Of a stretch of 64,000 nt of DNA, positions 579-58,419 are shown piece after piece. The DNA lies in the NCBI GenBank assembly GCA_040902765.1, contig JBBDWO010000007.1:20113-84112 (forward strand), given 5' to 3'. Within the stretch, counting starts at the first letter, position 1. Each line of letters starts with the position of its first letter. The DNA is from Acidimicrobiia bacterium. GTDB taxonomy: Bacteria; Actinomycetota; Acidimicrobiia; Spongiisociales; UBA11373. The notes under the pieces were generated by a model. It saw only the letters and a program-made list of their open reading frames with translations. It was not told where the DNA came from and searched no databases. The translations under genes and the position numbers were made by a program.

Positions 579-750
579 TGGGCCTCGCGACGCGTCTGGC
601 CTCCCCCTCCGTCATCGGCCTACGGCCTCTGCCACCTCCCCCTGCGGGGGAGGAGAGTCGGGGGGTGCGGTTCGCAACTCTCTCCCCCCGTAGGGGGGGT
701 ACCGCCGAAGGCGGGGAGGGGGGAGGGCGAACACTGCGTGGGCCTCGCCG
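579..750 (+). repeat. G/C-rich multi-hairpin MITE-like element, full copy (modules U1+U2)
   Basis: CCTCGCGACGCGTCTGGCCTCCCCCTCC terminus, hairpins CCTCCCCC-TGC-GGGGGAGG, CCCCCC-GTA-GGGGGG and CCGCC-GAA-GGCGG, then GGGGAGGGGGGAGGGCG. It is bounded by the direct repeat CGTGGGCCTCGC (577-588 and 737-748). Confidence 0.8.
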
Positions 751-3064: not shown

Positions 3065-3075
3065 GGAGCGCAAGA

Positions 3076-3111
3076 GTAACGAGTAGGAAGTAGCGAGTAG
3101 CGAGTAGCGAG
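3076..3111. repeat. heptamer array (GTAGCGA, the inverse of GCTACTC; 5 units)
   Basis: GTAACGA GTAGGAA GTAGCGA GTAGCGA GTAGCGA. Confidence 0.85.
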
Positions 3112-3120
3112 ACCGAGGTG

Positions 3121-3310
3121 AGCCTCGCGACGCGTCTGGCCTCCCCCTCCGTCAGCGACCTCCGGTCGCTGCCACCTCCCCCTGCGGGGGAGGAGACCGC
3201 GCGATCAGGTCCTTTTGCGGTTCCTCCCCCCGAAGGGGGGAGTACCTGACGGCGTAGCCGTCAGGGGAGGGGGGAGGGCGATCGCTACGCAGGCATCGCT
3301 GCGCGTCTGG
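3121..3310 (+). repeat. MITE-like element, full copy (U1+U2)
   Basis: Same architecture as 579-750. Inner hairpins here are CAGCGACC-TCC-GGTCGCTG (3153-3171) and CCTGACGGC-GTA-GCCGTCAGG (3245-3265). Confidence 0.8.
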
Positions 3311-3345
3311 CCATGAGCCATGAGCTATCAGCTATTAGCTGAGTT
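3311..3345. repeat. heptamer array (CCATGAG grading to CTATTAG, 5 units)
   Basis: CCATGAG CCATGAG CTATCAG CTATTAG CTGAGTT. It contains the TAA stop (and a following TAG) of the thioesterase-like gene. Confidence 0.8.
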
Positions 3346-7902: not shown

Positions 7903-7940
7903 AGAAAGATCGTACCGGCCGAAGGCCGGTCCGATCCGGC

Positions 7941-7970
7941 GCGATTCGCGGTTCGCGGTTCGCGATTCGC
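7941..7970. repeat. heptamer array (GCGRTTC, 4 units)
   Basis: GCGATTC GCGGTTC GCGGTTC GCGATTC GC. It is inverted relative to the 7984-8013 array. Confidence 0.85.
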
Positions 7971-7983
7971 CAGAACGCCTCTT

Positions 7984-8013
7984 GCGAATAGCGAATAGTG
8001 AATAGCGAATAGC
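7984..8013. repeat. heptamer array (GCGAATA, 4 units)
   Basis: GCGAATA GCGAATA GTGAATA GCGAATA GC. Confidence 0.85.
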
Positions 8014-8029
8014 GCCTAGGGTTTTCCCT

Positions 8030-8869: not shown

Positions 8870-8950
8870 GGGCCTCGCGACGCGTCAGCCCTCCCTCTCC
8901 GTCATCGGCCGGCGGCCGATGCCACTTCCCCCTTCAGGGGAGGGGACCGT
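8870..8950 (+). repeat. MITE-like element, U1 half copy
   Basis: GGCCTCGCGACGCGTCAGCCCTCCCTCTCC terminus, inner hairpin CATCGGCC-GGC-GGCCGATG (8903-8921), then CCACTTCCCCCTTCAGGGGAGGGG. Confidence 0.75.
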
Positions 8951-11005: not shown

Positions 11006-11100
11006 TTCCCCTCTCTCCCCCCGTAGGGGGGAGTACCCGACGGCGGAGCCGTCAGGGGAGGGGGGAGGGCGAACGCTACGCAGCCCCCGCGACGCGGCCG
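11006..11100 (+). repeat. MITE-like element, U2 half copy
   Basis: CTCTCCCCCC-GTA-GGGGGGAG hairpin, CCCGACGGC-GGA-GCCGTCAGG hairpin, GGGGAGGGGGGAGGGCG, and a CGCGACGCG end. Confidence 0.75.
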
Positions 11101-11128
11101 CTCTTGGTTCTTGGCTCTTGGTTCTCCG
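11101..11128. repeat. heptamer array (YTCTTGG, 4 units)
   Basis: CTCTTGG TTCTTGG CTCTTGG TTCTCCG. Confidence 0.75.
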
Positions 11129-14601: not shown

Positions 14602-14630
14602 TAACGGAAGCGCCGAAGGCGCTTCCGTTA
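14602..14630 (-). other. perfect 13-bp stem-loop in the purA upstream region
   Basis: TAACGGAAGCGCC-GAA-GGCGCTTCCGTTA. Its 3' arm runs into the GTTATTC heptamer array. It lies 39 nt upstream of the purA ATG. Confidence 0.4.
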
Positions 14631-14650
14631 TTCGTTATTCGTTATTCGCT
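14627..14650. repeat. heptamer array (GTTATTC, 3 units)
   Basis: GTTATTC x3 followed by GCT. It is inverted relative to the 14705-14734 array. Confidence 0.8.
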
Positions 14651-14704
14651 AGGTCTCGCATACAGCAGTACCTATCAGATCAACGCCTCAGCAGGAACCG
14701 CCTT

Positions 14705-14734
14705 GCGAATAGCGAATAGCGAATTGCGAATCGC
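14705..14734. repeat. heptamer array (GCGAATA-type, 4 units)
   Basis: GCGAATA GCGAATA GCGAATT GCGAATC GC. Confidence 0.85.
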
Positions 14735-16615: not shown

Positions 16616-16643
16616 GAGAGGGGCGAGGGGCGAGGGGCGACTG
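16616..16643. repeat. heptamer array (GCGAGGG, 4 units)
   Basis: GAGAGGG GCGAGGG GCGAGGG GCGACTG. It fills most of the 45-nt gap between two genes. Confidence 0.75.
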
Positions 16644-31769: not shown

Positions 31770-31797
31770 GGCTACCTGCTGCCGGCTACCGGCTACC
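31770..31797. repeat. heptamer array (GGCTACC, 4 units)
   Basis: GGCTACC TGCTGCC GGCTACC GGCTACC. Confidence 0.75.
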
Positions 31798-31837
31798 GCC
31801 GAAGGCGGGGAGGGGGGAGGGCTTACGCGTCGCGAGC
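31795..31837 (+). repeat. MITE-like element, 3'-terminal fragment of U2
   Basis: ACCGCCGAAGGCGGGGAGGGGGGAGGGCTTACGCGTCGCGAGC, which is identical in its core to 701-727. Confidence 0.7.
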
Positions 31838-31842
31838 AAGCG

Positions 31843-31894
31843 GCTACGACTCGCTACTCGGTAACCGCTACTCGCTACTCGCTACTCGCTACTT
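31843..31894. repeat. heptamer array (GCTACTC, about 7 units)
   Basis: GCTACGA ctc GCTACTC GGTAACC GCTACTC GCTACTC GCTACTC GCTACTT. It overlaps the lgt 3' end and stop codon. Confidence 0.85.
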
Positions 31895-33040: not shown

Positions 33041-33086
33041 GAGCGGGGATGGTAGAGGTCAAAGAGTGGCCAGTGGTCCAGCCACC

Positions 33087-33110
33087 GGCTACCCGCTACC
33101 GGCTACCGGC
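33087..33110. repeat. heptamer array (SGCTACC, 3 units)
   Basis: GGCTACC CGCTACC GGCTACC GGC. It contains the TAG stop of the four-helix-bundle gene. Confidence 0.8.
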
Positions 33111-33465
33111 GACGGGGTGTGAGGCGCTGACCGAGAGCACCCAGCATCGACCGAACGAGTCGTACATTCTCGCGCAGGTCGGCGTGGGTGGCGGGGTCGA
33201 CATACCCCAGGTCCGCAGCCAAACGGAGCTGGTACTCGACCTCGTTCGCCGATCCGACTGAGTAGCGAACAAAGCGAGCAAAGTCCCTATCAGAGCCGCG
33301 GCCTGCGCCCTCCGAGATGTTCGACGCGATCGAGGCGGCCGCCCGACGAGTCTGCTGAGTCAGGCTGAATCGCTCGGCCTTCGGATACTTCTGAGTGACG
33401 GCATACACCCGCAGTGCAACCCGATGCGCTTCTTGCCAGACCCTGAGCTTCTCGTAATCGGCCAC
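33103..33465 (-). CDS. four-helix-bundle protein (23S rRNA intervening-sequence protein / Avd-like family)
   Basis: 120 aa. Characteristic pattern L.VWQ.A....VY..T..YPK.ERF.L..Q.RRAA.SI..NI.EG, then GSANEVEYQL. The GTG start and the TAG stop both lie next to or inside heptamer arrays. Confidence 0.8.
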   Translation of the reverse strand: MADYEKLRVWQEAHRVALRVYAVTQKYPKAERFSLTQQTRRAAASIASNISEGAGRGSDRDFARFVRYSVGSANEVEYQLRLAADLGYVDPATHADLRENVRLVRSMLGALGQRLTPRRR

Positions 33466-33507: not shown

Positions 33508-33557
33508 GGTGCTGGTAGCTGGTAGCTGGTAGCTGGTAGCTGGTAGCTGGCAGCTGC
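33508..33557. repeat. heptamer array (GGTAGCT, 7 units)
   Basis: GGTGCT GGTAGCT x5 GGCAGCT. It is the inverse complement of the 33087-33110 array (AGCTACC vs SGCTACC). Confidence 0.9.
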
Positions 33558-35000: not shown

Positions 35001-35091
35001 GGGAAGGGGCGAGGGCCAGGAGGAACGATGGGCGAGGGACGAGGGGCCAGGGGCGAGGGGCCAGGATGGCGATGAGCGAGAACGAAGGCAG
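35001..35091. repeat. heptamer array (GGGGCGA/GGGGCCA-type, about 13 partly decayed units)
   Basis: GGGAAGG GGCGAGG GCCAGGA GGAACGA TGGGCGA GGGACGA GGGGCCA GGGGCGA GGGGCCA GGATGGC GATGAGC GAGAACG AAGGCAG. Confidence 0.7.
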
Positions 35092-35299
35092 GGCCTCGCG
35101 ATGGGTCAACCCTCCCCCTCCGTCTCGGCCCTTCGGGCCGATCCACCTCCCCCTTCGGGGGAGGGAACCGCGTTGGGAGGTCCCGCTTTGCGGTTCCTCG
35201 CCCTGAAGGGGTTGGGAGGTCCCGCTTTGCGGTTCCTCCCCCTGAAGGGGGGAGTACCGCCGAAGGCGGGGAGGGGGGAGGGCTGGCGCGTCGCGAGCG
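35091..35299 (+). repeat. MITE-like element, full copy with an internal 39-nt tandem duplication
   Basis: The termini GGGCCTCGCGATGGGTCAACCCTCCCCCTCC and GGGGAGGGGGGAGGGCTGGCGCGTCGCGAGC are mutually inverted. The inner hairpin is TCGGCCC-TTC-GGGCCGA (35125-35141). The duplicated unit GTTGGGAGGTCCCGCTTTGCGGTTCCTC.CCCTGAAGGG occurs at 35172-35210 and at 35211-35250. Confidence 0.8.
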
Positions 35300-54793: not shown

Positions 54794-55252
54794 GTGAGTG
54801 GCACGCTGTTCTCGGGGGGAGGCACTGGCGATCGGCTCAGGCCTGGTCGGATACGATGCGCCACCTTGGGCGAGATCACCGACCGATCAGTGAGTGACCA
54901 CGGCGCCGGGTGGCCACAAGCCGTTCTCGTGGTCCTGCTGCTGTATCTGTTCCTGATCGGCGTGAAGGCATTGGAGTCGGGGATCAACGGGCTCGGATCG
55001 GGGTTCACCGATGCACTCTTCGAGGGCGTCAGTCATCCGCTCGCCGGCCTGTCCGTGGGCATCCTCGGCACGGTGCTGGTGCAGTCGTCGTCGGTGAGCA
55101 CGGCGACCATCGTTGGTCTGGTCGGTGCCGGGACGCTCGGATTCGAGGCGGCGATCCGGGTGATCGCCCACCTGATGAACATTCTGACGTCGCTGGTGAT
55201 GCCGATCGACCGGCTGGACTACTACGACGAGAAGAAGGCCGATCGCGAGTAG
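54794..55252 (+). pseudogene. Na/Pi cotransporter family protein, N-terminal remnant
   Basis: LFLIGVKALESG, LAGLSVGILGTVLVQSSSVSTATIVGLVGAG and FEAAI match the first Na_Pi_cotrans repeat. The usual GANIGT block is degenerate (AHLMNILT). The ORF ends after about 150 aa, whereas the family is usually over 500 aa. Confidence 0.45.
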
Positions 55253-55277: not shown

Positions 55278-56312
55278 GTGACGATGAGCCATCCCTTCGA
55301 GCCGCCGATCACTCCGATGGAGGCGAAGGTCCGTGTCGAGCTCCCGAAGGGCGACTGGGCCTACGAACCCAAGTGGGATGGCTTCAGGGCCGTGGCGTGG
55401 AGCGAGCCGATCCGGCTCGACAGTCGCAACCACAAGCCGCTGCTGCGGTACTTCCCCGAGTTGGCGCCGTCGCTGACATCCATCCCCGCCAGCACGGTCA
55501 TCGACGGCGAGGTGGTGGTGGTCAACGAGCACGATCGGCTCGACTTCGACCTGCTCCAGAACCGAATTCACCCGGCCGCCTCCCGGGTGGACCGCCTGGC
55601 GGAGGAGACCCCGGCATCGCTCGTGGTGTTCGATCTGCTCGCCGACGACGGCGACGACCTGCGCCCTTCACCGTTCTCGGAGCGTCGCCGCCGCCTGGAG
55701 GCCCTGTTCCCGAAGCTCGACGGTCGCTGGCACCTGACCCCGTCGACCACCGACCGCACGGTCGGTGAGCGCTGGTTCCACGAGTTCGAGGCGGCCGGCT
55801 GCGACGGCATCGTCGCCAAGGCCCTCGACGGTGCGTACGCCGAAGGCAAGCGCGAGATGATCAAGGTCAAGCACCGCCGCACCGTGGACTGTGTGGTCGG
55901 CGGATACCGGGTCCACAAGGACGGCAAGGGGGTCGGCTCGATCCTGCTCGGCCTCTACGACGGCGACGCCCTCCATTTCATCGGCCACTGCTCCGGGTTC
56001 GCCGATCATGACCGGGTCGCCATCCTCCGACTGCTCGAGGAGATTCGCTCAGACGACTCGTTCGGCTCGGCCGATCAGGTGCGCCGCCCCGGTGCCGAGA
56101 GCCGCTGGAGTGGTGACAAGGACCTGTCCTGGGAGCCCGTCGAGCCAGGCATCGTCGCCGAGGTCTCCTACGACCAGCTCACCGCCAACCGATTCCGCCA
56201 CGCCACCCGCTTCGAGCGCTGGCGCCCCGACAAGGACCCGCAGCAATGCACCATGGACCAGTTGAAACGCCCCGAGGGGACTGGGTTTGGTGGGGTGGTT
56301 GGGAGCGGGTAG
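55278..56312 (+). CDS. ligC: ATP-dependent DNA ligase (LigC-type, ligase domain only)
   Basis: 344 aa. Adenylation motif I EPKWDGFR, motif DGEVVV, GIVAK and KVKH. The start is GTG 55278 or ATG 55284. Confidence 0.85.
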   Translation: MTMSHPFEPPITPMEAKVRVELPKGDWAYEPKWDGFRAVAWSEPIRLDSRNHKPLLRYFPELAPSLTSIPASTVIDGEVVVVNEHDRLDFDLLQNRIHPAASRVDRLAEETPASLVVFDLLADDGDDLRPSPFSERRRRLEALFPKLDGRWHLTPSTTDRTVGERWFHEFEAAGCDGIVAKALDGAYAEGKREMIKVKHRRTVDCVVGGYRVHKDGKGVGSILLGLYDGDALHFIGHCSGFADHDRVAILRLLEEIRSDDSFGSADQVRRPGAESRWSGDKDLSWEPVEPGIVAEVSYDQLTANRFRHATRFERWRPDKDPQQCTMDQLKRPEGTGFGGVVGSG

Positions 56313-56313
56313 C

Positions 56314-56341
56314 AGCCAGTGGCGAGGGGCGAGTGGCCAGG
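56314..56341. repeat. heptamer array (GGCGAGK, about 4 units)
   Basis: AGCCAGT GGCGAGG GGCGAGT GGCCAGG, directly after the ligC TAG stop. Confidence 0.7.
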
Positions 56342-56342
56342 G

Positions 56343-56550
56343 TCGCGTCATGGGGTCCACGTAGGGTTTGCCCTCCCCCCTCCCCGCCGCTCGCTTCGCT
56401 CCCGGCGGTACTCCCCCCTTCGGGGGGAGGGACCGCAAGAGAGAGGTGATGACCGGGAGTGCCGCCTCTGTTTGCGGTCCCCTCCCCTGAAGGGGGAGGT
56501 GGCAGCGGCCTCTGGCCGCTGACGGAGGGGGAGGGCTGACGCGTCGCGGG
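56343..56550 (-). repeat. MITE-like element, full copy in inverted orientation (left of DUF559)
   Basis: The reverse complement of the U2+U1 architecture. GCCCTCCCCCCTCCCC, CTCCCCCC-TTC-GGGGGGAG, linking stem GGGACCGCA...TGCGGTCCC, CCTCCCC-TGAA-GGGGGAGG, CAGCGGCC-TCT-GGCCGCTG (56503-56521), and a GGAGGGGGAGGGCTGACGCGTCGCG end. Confidence 0.8.
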
Positions 56551-56589
56551 GGGCTGGCAACTCGTTGTCAGACGAGACATTCTCTACGG

Positions 56590-56958
56590 ATGGCAAGGCC
56601 CCCTCGTGATCCGCTCGCCGCTGAGCGTGCCCGAACACTGCGGCGTAGGCAGACCAATGTCGAGGCTCGTCTCTGGGTCCGTCTTAGGGGCGGTCAGTTG
56701 GGCGTCCGATTCCGACGGCAGGTGCCGATGGGTCAGTGGATCGTTGACTTCGCCTGTTTCGCCCCCAAGCTCGTCATCGAAGTGGACGACGGGTCTCACG
56801 ATGGCCGGGACGAGTCGGAACGCACTCGGTACCTGGAGTCCTTGGGTTTTGCAGTGGCTCGTTTCGACAACAGGGACATCTTCGAGATCGACGTGGCGGT
56901 CCACGCCCTCGAAGTGGCGATAGCGGCACTGCGGAAGGGTGAACCGCTCCCTTGGTGA
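56590..56958 (+). CDS. DUF559 endonuclease domain protein (Vsr-like PD-(D/E)XK)
   Basis: 122 aa. LRRRQT..E..LW..LR, FRRQ..., YIVDF-like WIVDFAC, LVIEVDG-like LVIEVDDGSH, and G..V.RF.N. Confidence 0.85.
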   Translation: MARPPRDPLAAERARTLRRRQTNVEARLWVRLRGGQLGVRFRRQVPMGQWIVDFACFAPKLVIEVDDGSHDGRDESERTRYLESLGFAVARFDNRDIFEIDVAVHALEVAIAALRKGEPLPW

Positions 56959-56965
56959 TCGGTCC

Positions 56966-57333
56966 CTCTCGCGGGCCGACGCGTCGCGGGGTCTCCGTAG
57001 TGTTTGCCCTCCCCCCTCCCCGCCGCTCGCTTCGCTCGCGGCGGTACTCCCCCCTTCGGGGGGAGGGACCGCAGGAGAGAGGTGATGACCGGAAGTCCTG
57101 CCTCTGTTTGCGGTCCCCTCCCCTGAAGGGGGAGGTGGCAGCGGCCTCTGGCCGCTGACGGAGGGGGAGGGCTTCCTGCGGTCCCCTCCCCTGAAGGGGG
57201 AGGTGGCAGCGGCCTTGCCGCTGACGGAGGGGGAGGGCTTCCTGCAGTCCTTTCTGCGGTTCCCTCCCCTGAAGGGGGAGGTGGCAGCGGCCTCTGGCCG
57301 CTGACGGAGGGGGAGGGCTGACGCGTCGCGAGG
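56966..57333 (-). repeat. MITE-like element, inverted orientation, with the U1 module triplicated (right of DUF559)
   Basis: 56998-57172 is a near-direct repeat of 56361-56535. The U1 module recurs at 57111-57172, 57179-57238 and 57257-57318, separated by 6 nt and 18 nt. Confidence 0.8.
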
Positions 57334-57342
57334 CCCAATGAC

Positions 57343-57384
57343 TCCTGGTCCCTCGCTACTCGCTACTCGCTACTCGCTACTTCC
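57343..57384. repeat. heptamer array (TACTCGC, 6 units)
   Basis: TCCTGGT CCCTCGC TACTCGC TACTCGC TACTCGC TACTTCC. It is the inverse of the 56314-56341 array (AGCGAGT vs GGCGAGT) and contains the primase-polymerase TAG stop. Confidence 0.85.
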
Positions 57385-58371: not shown

Positions 58372-58419
58372 GCTATCGCTACTCGCTACTCGCTACTCGC
58401 TACTCGTTACTTGCTACGG
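58372..58419. repeat. heptamer array (GCTACTC, 7 units) filling a divergent intergenic region
   Basis: GCTATC GCTACTC x4 GTTACTT GCTACGG. It occupies 48 of the 64 nt between the primase-polymerase start and the hdeD-like start. Confidence 0.9.

Follow-up and report, generated by a model that had tools for sequence, protein, structure and literature searches.

BoxC, PIT or intrastrand triplex motifs (here triplex motif, TM; Bachellier et al.; Hoyne et al., 2000) have been known in Escherichia coli since the 1990s, and hundreds of bacterial genomes contain them. Holder et al. (2015; PMC4666352) listed 23 TM copies at 18 loci of E. coli MG1655, five of them inverted doublets, and the published consensus reads CCCTCNCCC N3-6 GGGNGAGGG N3 GGGNGAGGG (PMC4666352). 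In vitro the motif folds into a triplex on single strands, and its loci in E. coli are hypervariable; earlier work found neither promoter nor terminator activity for PIT/TM elements, and no mobility-related gene was found near TM loci (PMC4666352). Here we describe a stretch of 64,000 nucleotides of contig JBBDWO010000007.1 from an Acidimicrobiia bacterium (the 64-kb window, to which all positions refer unless another locus or accession is named), in which two enlarged copies of this motif enclose a gene for a small predicted nuclease of the DUF559/YcjD family, in the spacer between a LigC-type DNA ligase gene (ligC) and a primase-polymerase gene (primpol). Published work on BoxC/PIT/TM found no associated enzyme, whereas a YcjD-type gene is a recurrent neighbour of the motif here. 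The comparison of many bacteria supports well a partnership of nuclease and repeat, the window block being one case of a widespread pairing.

By analogy, this pairing would belong to a known kind, that of an enzyme with its own dispersed structured repeats, as in the RAYT transposases with their REP/REPIN repeats, reportedly described by Nunvar in 2010 and by Bertels and Rainey in 2011. The window system resembles RAYT/REPIN in its single gene between inverted structured repeats, its many gene-less copies and doublets and its mostly vertical inheritance. It differs in the enzyme, which is a Vsr-like PD-(D/E)XK protein and not an HUH Y1 (IS200/IS605-like) transposase, and in the repeat, which is a triplex/G-rich motif and not a REP palindrome. 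We know of no transposition chemistry for the Vsr-like PD-(D/E)XK fold. Among proteins of known function, the homing endonuclease I-Bth0305I (3R3P), a Vsr-like enzyme of a phage group I intron that has an extra N-terminal DNA-binding region, comes nearest in structure. I-Bth0305I is intron-borne, whereas the window gene is free-standing between repeats, but I-Bth0305I is a selfish gene that is present or absent at a fixed site, and the two are alike in this: as for a homing endonuclease gene, the DUF559 gene is present in the window and absent from the corresponding site of the related loci L085 and L169, and its closest homolog is present at locus L001 and absent from the corresponding site of L173 and L174.

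Association of DUF559 genes with triplex motifs across bacteria

Four DUF559 homologs (those of the window, L001, L002 and L003; 52-100% identity) abut repeat arrays of this type in unrelated gene neighbourhoods. A scan of one genome per species added 80 further small DUF559 loci, and the association was counted over 83 loci from Acidimicrobiia, Dehalococcoidia, Alpha- and Gammaproteobacteria, Binatia, Nitrospirales, Planctomycetota and others, at least eight phyla altogether. A structural motif finder located a TM at <=200 nt from the gene in 71 of the 83 loci (61 upstream, 54 downstream, 44 on both sides); with a background density of 0.056 TM loci per kb, this is an enrichment of ~30-fold near DUF559 genes. 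Comparison of each locus with itself by BLAST showed a repeat pair straddling the gene in 52 of the 83 loci, with 31 inverted and 21 direct pairs, and did so at only 44 of 2292 control positions within these loci (1.9%). The original prediction had tied DUF559 to the repeat family from the window sequence, and this tie is borne out by homologs elsewhere, both in these 71 loci and in E. coli, Neisseria and a cyanobacterial plasmid (see below). The prediction had also suggested an undescribed role for DUF559, and in the literature searched no paper tied DUF559, YcjD or COG2852 to these repeats.

The arrangement of motif and gene is regular. In the dominant layout a TM(+) lies upstream and a TM(-) downstream, and the median distance between the end of the upstream TM and the first in-frame start codon is 8 nt (<=15 nt in 36 of 54 loci), the last G block of this TM supplying a GAGG ribosome-binding sequence. 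At the other end, the stop codon is located within the downstream TM in 17 of 53 loci, which results in C-termini such as ...PPSP*. Most TM loci, on the other hand, are without the gene: 526 kb of Acidimicrobiia-like DNA contained 20 TM loci, 17 solo and three with the gene. A genome thus has one or a few YcjD-type genes between TMs, and many solo TMs and TM doublets dispersed over its intergenic DNA.

The same neighbourhood is encountered in model organisms. In E. coli, the intact motif TMECO no. 9 lies downstream of ycjD (b1289; NC_000913 1351407-1351760) at a distance of ~170 nt, and a degenerate TM spans the stop codon of the gene, where the chance expectation for a TM near ycjD is ~0.003 (18 TM loci in 4.6 Mb); the genome has 18 TM loci and one ycjD gene. 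The adjacent sequence (NC_000913 1351200-1351420; L084) contains a ~70-nt copy of the 3' end of ycjD, followed by the degenerate TM and then by TMECO no. 9, and this duplicated fragment resembles what a second cassette, or a repair or copy event, would leave behind. The gene occupies the fabI-sapF site, at which other phylogroups carry eefRABCD (PMC12817139). Lineages with ycjD are A, B1 and C, and those without it are B2 and others. In Neisseria gonorrhoeae, NGO0050 (structure 3HRL) is located between ~100-nt direct repeats, each with a TM, and on plasmid pAQ6 of Picosynechococcus PCC 7002 a DUF559 gene has arrays of a CCCCC/GGGGG/GGGGG-type TM variant on both sides.

The block between ligC and the primase-polymerase gene

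From left to right, the block consists of the ligC stop, a weak heptamer array, repeat copy A, the DUF559 gene, repeat copy B, a perfect heptamer array and the primase-polymerase stop. Pfam, TRF and sequence comparison recovered every part that the original prediction had listed, in that order. The features are as follows.

55278-56312, forward strand: LigC-type ATP-dependent DNA ligase gene (Pfam DNA_ligase_A_M 7e-34, DNA_ligase_A_C 1.8e-14), the left neighbour, outside the element
56321-56342: left heptamer array of GGCGAGG/GGCGAGT units, 9 nt past the ligC stop (TRF: 3.1 degenerate copies, 80% match)
56343-56550, forward strand: repeat copy A, an inverted doublet of triplex-type motifs
~56370-56438 and 56479-56534: parts of copy A, namely the C-rich reverse-complement TM module and, after a spacer, the TM(+) module
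56538-56551, forward strand: GACGCGTCGCGGGG, upstream member of a 14-nt direct repeat bracketing the DUF559 gene
56590-56958, forward strand: intact gene for a DUF559/YcjD-family, Vsr-like PD-(D/E)XK predicted nuclease of 122 aa (Pfam PF04480, 8.7e-29)
56966-57333, forward strand: repeat copy B, a doublet as in copy A with the TM(+) module in three copies
56978-56991, forward strand: GACGCGTCGCGGGG, downstream member of the 14-nt direct repeat
57104-57187, 57172-57255 and 57250-57333: 3' modules of copy B (TRF period 68, 2.9 copies)
57115-57170, 57183-57236 and 57261-57316: TM(+) units of copy B
57352-57381: right heptamer array (CTCGCTA)x4.3, perfect according to TRF, overlapping the primase-polymerase stop codon
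57377-58363, reverse strand: primase-polymerase gene (Pfam LigD_Prim-Pol PF21686, 1.9e-71), the right neighbour, convergent with ligC
58372-58417: third heptamer array (GCTACTC)x6.7 (TRF), between the divergent starts of primpol and a DUF308 gene

The direct repeat between the two copies, given before as about 175 nt (56361-56535 and 56998-57172), is in fact longer, with 194 nt at 95% identity (56344-56537 versus 56980-57173). The two heptamer arrays had been described as inverse to each other; this holds in part, since the right array is perfect but the left one is weak and only approximately its inverse (5 of 7 bases). The third heptamer array, the 14-nt direct repeat and six further loci of the repeat family (see below) come in addition to what the prediction had listed. 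No matches were obtained in a scan of the block for promoter and terminator consensus sequences.

Homology between the window and L001, the locus of the closest homolog, covers window ~56474-57025, beginning with the TM(+) module and ending where the TM(-) module starts. The core unit is therefore TM(+)-leader-gene-TM(-), of ~550 bp, and not the whole composite element of 1.07 kb originally proposed. In the window this unit sits between the outer halves of two TM doublets and hence reads as repeat A-gene-repeat B; the 14-nt bracket GACGCGTCGCGGGG around the gene is also found at L001. The window and L001 have 90% identity over the upstream TM and leader, while their synonymous sites differ by ~50%, and the non-coding flank itself is therefore constrained.

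L001 lies at a different locus, at which an APH kinase gene is convergent with gpsA (the best named matches of LigC, of this kinase and of DUF559 were metagenome-assembled genomes, MAGs, of Acidimicrobiia). In two relatives whose kinase is 85% identical (L173 and L174), the place of the L001 cassette is taken by a 72-nt spacer that contains neither a TM nor the gene. At the ligC-primpol spacer, the two relatives with 93% identical LigC and PrimPol (L085 and L169) have a ligC stop, (GAGTAGC)x5, one doublet, (CTCGCTA)x4 and a primpol stop, with no DUF559; what the window has in addition is the gene and a second doublet. The comparison of relatives that had been proposed for this spacer thus yielded a site without the gene in the closest relative. 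The two closest DUF559 orthologs, those of the window and L001, are thus located at non-homologous sites, both of which are empty in near relatives. For the window, the sequences fit either an insertion into or next to a resident doublet, or a loss in L085 by recombination between copies A and B.

Other relatives indicate that this spacer has had a varied history. In L100 it contains a DUF559 gene of a different subclade (43-46% identical), again with TM modules, and in L098 the corresponding gene (2435-2737, compared with 4396-4725 of L100) has an in-frame TAG and a deletion and is thus a pseudogene, so that cassettes decay in place. Vertical descent of the DUF559 genes of the window and of L098/L100 from one ancestor was considered and is unlikely in view of the 43-46% identity, the different subclades and the dozens of closer homologs in other contexts. 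In most relatives ligC and primpol are convergent and many of the spacers measure 25-100 nt; others have inserts of 1-2.7 kb, and L165/L166 (5115-6056) and L167 (3807-4751), with 81-84% identical LigC, carry a gene for a 2OG-Fe(II) oxygenase in the spacer, without repeats. The spacer is a recurrent site of gene gain or loss. As ligC and primpol are ancestrally convergent, the block does not split a co-transcribed pair, contrary to the original idea of a split ligC/primase-polymerase pair.

One relative has a different gene order. In L132 (1-1600; LigC 90% identical) primpol has the orientation of ligC and starts ~70 nt behind it, an operon-like arrangement with degenerate heptamers in the spacer; inversion between heptamer arrays was rejected as the cause of this orientation, as the sequence downstream of the L132 primpol does not fit. 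A further difference lies upstream of ligC, where the window has only a fragment of a Na_Pi_cotrans gene (54794-55252; 152 aa) and no phoU, while in relatives (L165, 2092-3920) dnaK and ligC are separated by a full-length gene for the Na/Pi cotransporter (379 aa) and by phoU (224 aa), which looks like a deletion in the window.

The repeat

The repeat had been described as resembling miniature inverted-repeat transposable elements (MITEs). By its architecture, which was recognised by comparing the flanks of DUF559 homologs across phyla, it is an enlarged inverted doublet of the BoxC/PIT/TM motif and not a new family (PMC4666352). Each copy has two modules in opposite orientation, the 5' module being of the C-rich reverse-complement type, and the 3' module of copy A reads CCCCTCCCC TGAA GGGGGAGG TGG (CAGCGGCC TCT GGCCGCTG) AC GGAGGGGGAGG, the brackets enclosing a hairpin. 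The block order is that of the TM: a C/T block, a short loop and a complementary G/A block (CCCCTCCCC TGAA GGGGGAGG, at 56479-56499 and in the other copies), and then a second, mirrored G-rich block (GGAGGGGGAGG), which follows here after 24-27 nt with a hairpin but after 3 nt in the consensus. In the window variant, loop 2 holds an additional hairpin of 19 nt, whose arms differ from copy to copy by changes that compensate each other, the pairs of arms being CAGCGGCC/GGCCGCTG, CATCGGCC/GGCCGATG, CAGCGACC/GGTCGCTG and TCGGCCC/GGGCCGA. TMs with an inserted hairpin are also present at loci of other phyla (L018, L032 and L070). The window repeat is furthermore like the known motif in being intergenic and multi-copy, in its frequent inverted doublets and in its local sequence instability, and it differs by the 19-nt hairpin of loop 2, by doublets of ~200 nt, by tandem arrays and by the bracketing heptamer arrays.

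Folding as single-stranded DNA, in which only Watson-Crick pairs are considered, predicts -76.6 kcal/mol for copy A (z=-4.35). The equivalent spacer of L085 gives z=-8.6, a stronger fold because the heptamer arrays there pair as a 30-bp outer stem. Terminal inverted repeats are present, as they are in a MITE (outer arms GCCCTCCCCCC / GGGGGAGGGC), and the whole element is predicted to form one multi-branched hairpin; the only associated gene encodes a Vsr-like nuclease without a transposase domain. No short identical target-site duplication was seen at the repeat ends, which adjoin heptamer arrays that differ from site to site. The motif has also been described as a hairpin/G-quadruplex switch (Kaplan et al., 2016; PMC5100583). 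A plain G-quadruplex reading was considered as well, but published nuclear magnetic resonance data on the E. coli motif favour a single-strand triplex, with no stable structure in vivo (PMC4666352), and we therefore favour no single structure here. No Rfam family matched the repeat at gathering thresholds and only spurious miRNA-precursor hairpins did so at E<=1, so that no known RNA family fits.

The structural motif finder gave 17 TM matches in the window against 0-3 in each of 20 shuffled versions, which excludes a chance origin. The window has seven TM-family loci, all located between putative genes, with a doublet architecture, and six of them are without DUF559.

~586-744, reverse strand: solo repeat copy, without DUF559
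3126-3293, reverse strand: solo repeat copy, between (GAGTAGC)n at 3074-3111 and (GCCATGA)n at 3310-3325
8876-8949, reverse strand: solo TM module, 3' half only, 92% identical to copy A
11012-11096, reverse strand: solo reverse-complement TM module, 5' half only
31800-31845: further solo locus of the repeat family
35097-35295, reverse strand: solo repeat copy with an internal 39-nt tandem duplication at 35172-35250 (97% match)

The tandem duplication in the last of these copies indicates that modules are also duplicated away from the DUF559 gene.

Heptamer arrays

Heptamer arrays of 2-8 copies are located at 1-16 nt from the starts and stops of open reading frames (ORFs) in many intergenic regions of the window, often as inverted pairs.

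Heptamer arrays, first part: 555-570, 759-788, 3074-3111, 3310-3325, 7940-8014, 11102-11125, 14626-14731, 16618-16640
Heptamer arrays, second part: 31770-31893, 33084-33110, 33511-33556, 35005-35065, 56321-56342, 57352-57381, 58372-58417

Perfect arrays in the window number seven for period 7 and 0-1 for periods 5, 6, 8, 9 and 10. The heptamer differs per site, with GCTACNN, GCGAATA and GAGGGGC as recurrent types, and in relatives (L085, L122, L128, L172 and L174) arrays of other heptamers are placed likewise. At the left position of the spacer, L085 has (GAGTAGC)x5, the perfect inverse of the right array, which is conserved. The arrays were considered as termini of the element, of which they had been thought a part, and this was rejected: arrays are also present where the repeat is not, they adjoin ORF boundaries, their heptamer varies by site, and they are a genome-wide feature of ORF ends. 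We know of no description of such arrays.

A second small gene of a selfish type lies in a repeat-bracketed spacer of the window. It encodes a 120-aa four-helix-bundle protein (33103-33465, reverse strand; TIGR02436, E=7e-34) related to Avd of diversity-generating retroelements, and stands alone between the inverted arrays (GCTACCG)n at 33084-33110 and (GCTGGTA)n at 33511-33556.

The DUF559 protein

The window protein is a YcjD-type predicted nuclease with a PD-(D/E)XK fold like that of Vsr and I-Bth0305I. It scores 100 bits against Pfam PF04480 (cut-off 20.6; E=8.7e-29), and E25, the FRRQ motif (F41-R42-R43-Q44), D53, E64, D66 and H70 are invariant across 34 homologs. Profile searches matched NGO0050 (PDB 3HRL) at 4e-36 with 47% identity and, using hmmsearch, the catalytic domain of I-Bth0305I (3R3P) at 7e-4. 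An AlphaFold2 model (pLDDT 89) was closest in Foldseek to 3HRL (E=5.4e-9, TM(target) 0.85, rmsd 1.9), with I-Bth0305I next (E 8.5e-4). The protein is similar to E. coli YcjD and NGO0050 in family, size, the residues E...D...ExD...H and the TM-flanked gene. It differs from these two in belonging to an Acidimicrobiia subclade with the motif EVDDxSH, and it scores below the equivalog cut-off of the NCBIfam YcjD model PRK09767 (66 versus 218 bits; 2.8e-18). Between the window gene and L001, its closest homolog (85% aa identity), dN/dS is 0.12 at a dS of 0.81, from which it follows that the gene is under purifying selection.

Vsr belongs to the same superfamily, and no association with repeats has, to our knowledge, been reported for it. 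E25, D53, D66 and H70 of the window protein match in spacing E73, D102, D115 and H119 of Caulobacter VsrA (PMC12907096). The window protein is nevertheless distinct from Vsr: its only Pfam matches were DUF559 and a sub-threshold MTES_1575, with no match to Vsr (PF03852), and the Foldseek match of its predicted model to E. coli Vsr (1VSR) was weak (E 0.24). No C5-cytosine methyltransferase gene is adjacent either, the neighbours being ligC and primpol in the window and unrelated genes in L001-L003. Pfam revealed no transposase domain or features in the protein, and PADLOC gave no match to a defence system.

The best match to the window DUF559 in the genome collection was a 58% identical protein at L004 (3700-4500), which is labelled as a gammaproteobacterial MAG. 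This locus has 65% G+C and composite repeats in the style of Acidimicrobiia, its DUF559 gene is enclosed by a direct repeat of 141 nt (99% identity), and its label may reflect a binning error or horizontal transfer.

Explanations for the pairing

The sequences show the parts of this block, an intact and constrained gene, the association across phyla and two sites that are empty in relatives. That the block is a YcjD-type nuclease cassette bounded by TM repeats, in the spacer between two convergent repair genes, is well supported; together with a nuclease that would cut TM DNA and thereby drive its copying, it makes up the explanation to which we incline by a narrow balance. From these comparisons we infer that the TM is the substrate of the nuclease and that cleavage drives its spread. 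The nuclease would recognise TM DNA, possibly folded as a single-strand hairpin, triplex or G-quadruplex, and would nick or cut at the TM; the host's recombination and repair would act on the lesion, so that TM units, and at times the gene as well, are copied, duplicated or deleted in a homing-like process of break and copy. Such a mechanism would account for the local triplication in copy B, for the empty sites, for the reported instability of TM loci and for the long direct repeats by which many of the genes are enclosed.

A wider version of this reading is more tentative, and we regard it as somewhat doubtful. The YcjD family of DUF559 could be the missing partner enzyme of BoxC/PIT/triplex repeats throughout bacteria, in a RAYT-like system with a Vsr-like PD-(D/E)XK enzyme that would recognise folded DNA (hairpin, triplex or G-quadruplex) and whose nicking would generate, spread and destabilise the repeats. 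E. coli ycjD with its 23 TMECO copies would then be a domesticated example and the window block an expanded one from the Acidimicrobiia.

Several observations weigh against a nuclease that drives copying. A nuclease of 110-120 aa lacks strand-transfer and ligation functions and hence cannot be a transposase on its own. In E. coli, ycjD is single-copy, chromosomal and at a fixed position in 3378 of 5426 genomes, and DUF559 relatives are found on only 18 of 72,556 plasmid records, so that mobility is rare at best; the Dehalococcoidia loci L012, L017 and L034 represent one orthologous site, which points to vertical inheritance. Twelve of the 83 loci are without a TM according to the structural finder. 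Parsimony and outgroups give no direction for gain in the window versus loss in L085, and the variable parts of the L085 element diverge from copies A and B more than the flanking genes do. Furthermore, the only genetics on a relative are those of VsrA of Caulobacter, a family member whose toxicity depends on the loss of a cytosine methyltransferase, which points to methylation and not to repeats (PMC12907096). The mobilising or homing role that the original prediction gave to the nuclease is therefore a putative one, the E. coli counterpart of the gene being single-copy and positionally fixed.

The rival that survives best, which we nevertheless consider unlikely, takes the TM flanks as cis-acting parts for expression of the gene. 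The upstream TM would supply and perhaps mask the ribosome-binding site and the downstream TM would act as a 3' stabiliser; solo TMs would be relics of decayed cassettes, the true substrate would lie elsewhere (for example T:G mismatches or unmethylated sites, as has been proposed for VsrA of Caulobacter) and relocation would proceed only via ordinary host recombination. The position of the third G block of the upstream TM, with its GAGG a median of 8 nt before the start codon, and the stop codons within the downstream TM in 17 of 53 loci are what would be expected from such a role, but masking of the site is not universal, since ~55 nt separate the TM from the ATG in the window and the leader of L001 has the same length, and PIT/TM elements had no promoter or terminator activity in earlier work (PMC4666352). 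E. coli TM doublets are mostly (+,-) with spacers of 16-27 nt and do resemble gene-less cassettes; yet solo TMs outnumber genes 17 to 3 in the 526 kb and 18 loci to 1 in E. coli, and their sequence is very conserved across phyla, unlike that of relics. VsrA genetics tie a relative to cytosine methylation, whereas no cytosine methyltransferase gene lies beside the nuclease gene here. The immobility of the gene in E. coli is also in line with this rival.

It is less probable still that the gene is a bystander, i.e., that TMs are unstable intergenic DNA in which dispensable small genes gather and that DUF559 is an ordinary Vsr-like repair nuclease without functional tie to them. The hypervariability of TM loci in E. 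coli (PMC4666352) would agree with this, as would a ligC-primpol spacer that is an indel hotspot (25-100 nt, an oxygenase gene or inserts of 1-2.7 kb) and the occurrence of the Avd-like gene at 33103-33465 in another repeat-bracketed spacer. However, the enrichment of ~30-fold is specific to the surroundings of this gene (1.9% of control positions), and the pairing recurs in at least eight phyla as well as in E. coli, Neisseria and a cyanobacterium. The TMs keep to one orientation (+ upstream, - downstream), the motif incorporates start and stop codons of the gene, and the flanking TM is more conserved than synonymous sites.

That the whole 1.07-kb block, from array to array, is a composite transposon or MITE pair with DUF559 as a transposase-like enzyme that separated a ligC/primpol pair is highly improbable: the flanking copies are 95% identical, the arrays are inverted and the gene is absent in the closest relative, but L085 has both arrays and one repeat without the gene, so that arrays and repeat did not arrive with it, heptamer arrays abut ORF ends throughout the window and in relatives and differ per site, the unit in common with L001 is TM(+)-gene-TM(-) only, neither a visible target-site duplication nor any transposase feature recognisable in the protein was encountered, and ligC and primpol are convergent and were never one transcription unit in this lineage.

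Implications

The block in the window is a new member of a pairing that seems to be undescribed. It joins two partners that have each been puzzling: the origin, spread and function of BoxC/PIT/triplex motifs have long been unexplained, and the small proteins of the DUF559/YcjD family, which are very common and for which a structure has been solved, have been assigned no function. If nuclease and repeat belong together, these two long-standing unknowns would merge into one hypothesis that is testable in E. coli K-12, namely that YcjD cuts or binds TMECO DNA and drives the instability of the TMECO loci. The pairing would then represent a second, mechanistically different class of enzyme with dispersed repeats beside RAYT/REPIN, and the DUF559 protein would be a natural nuclease that may read non-B DNA structure.

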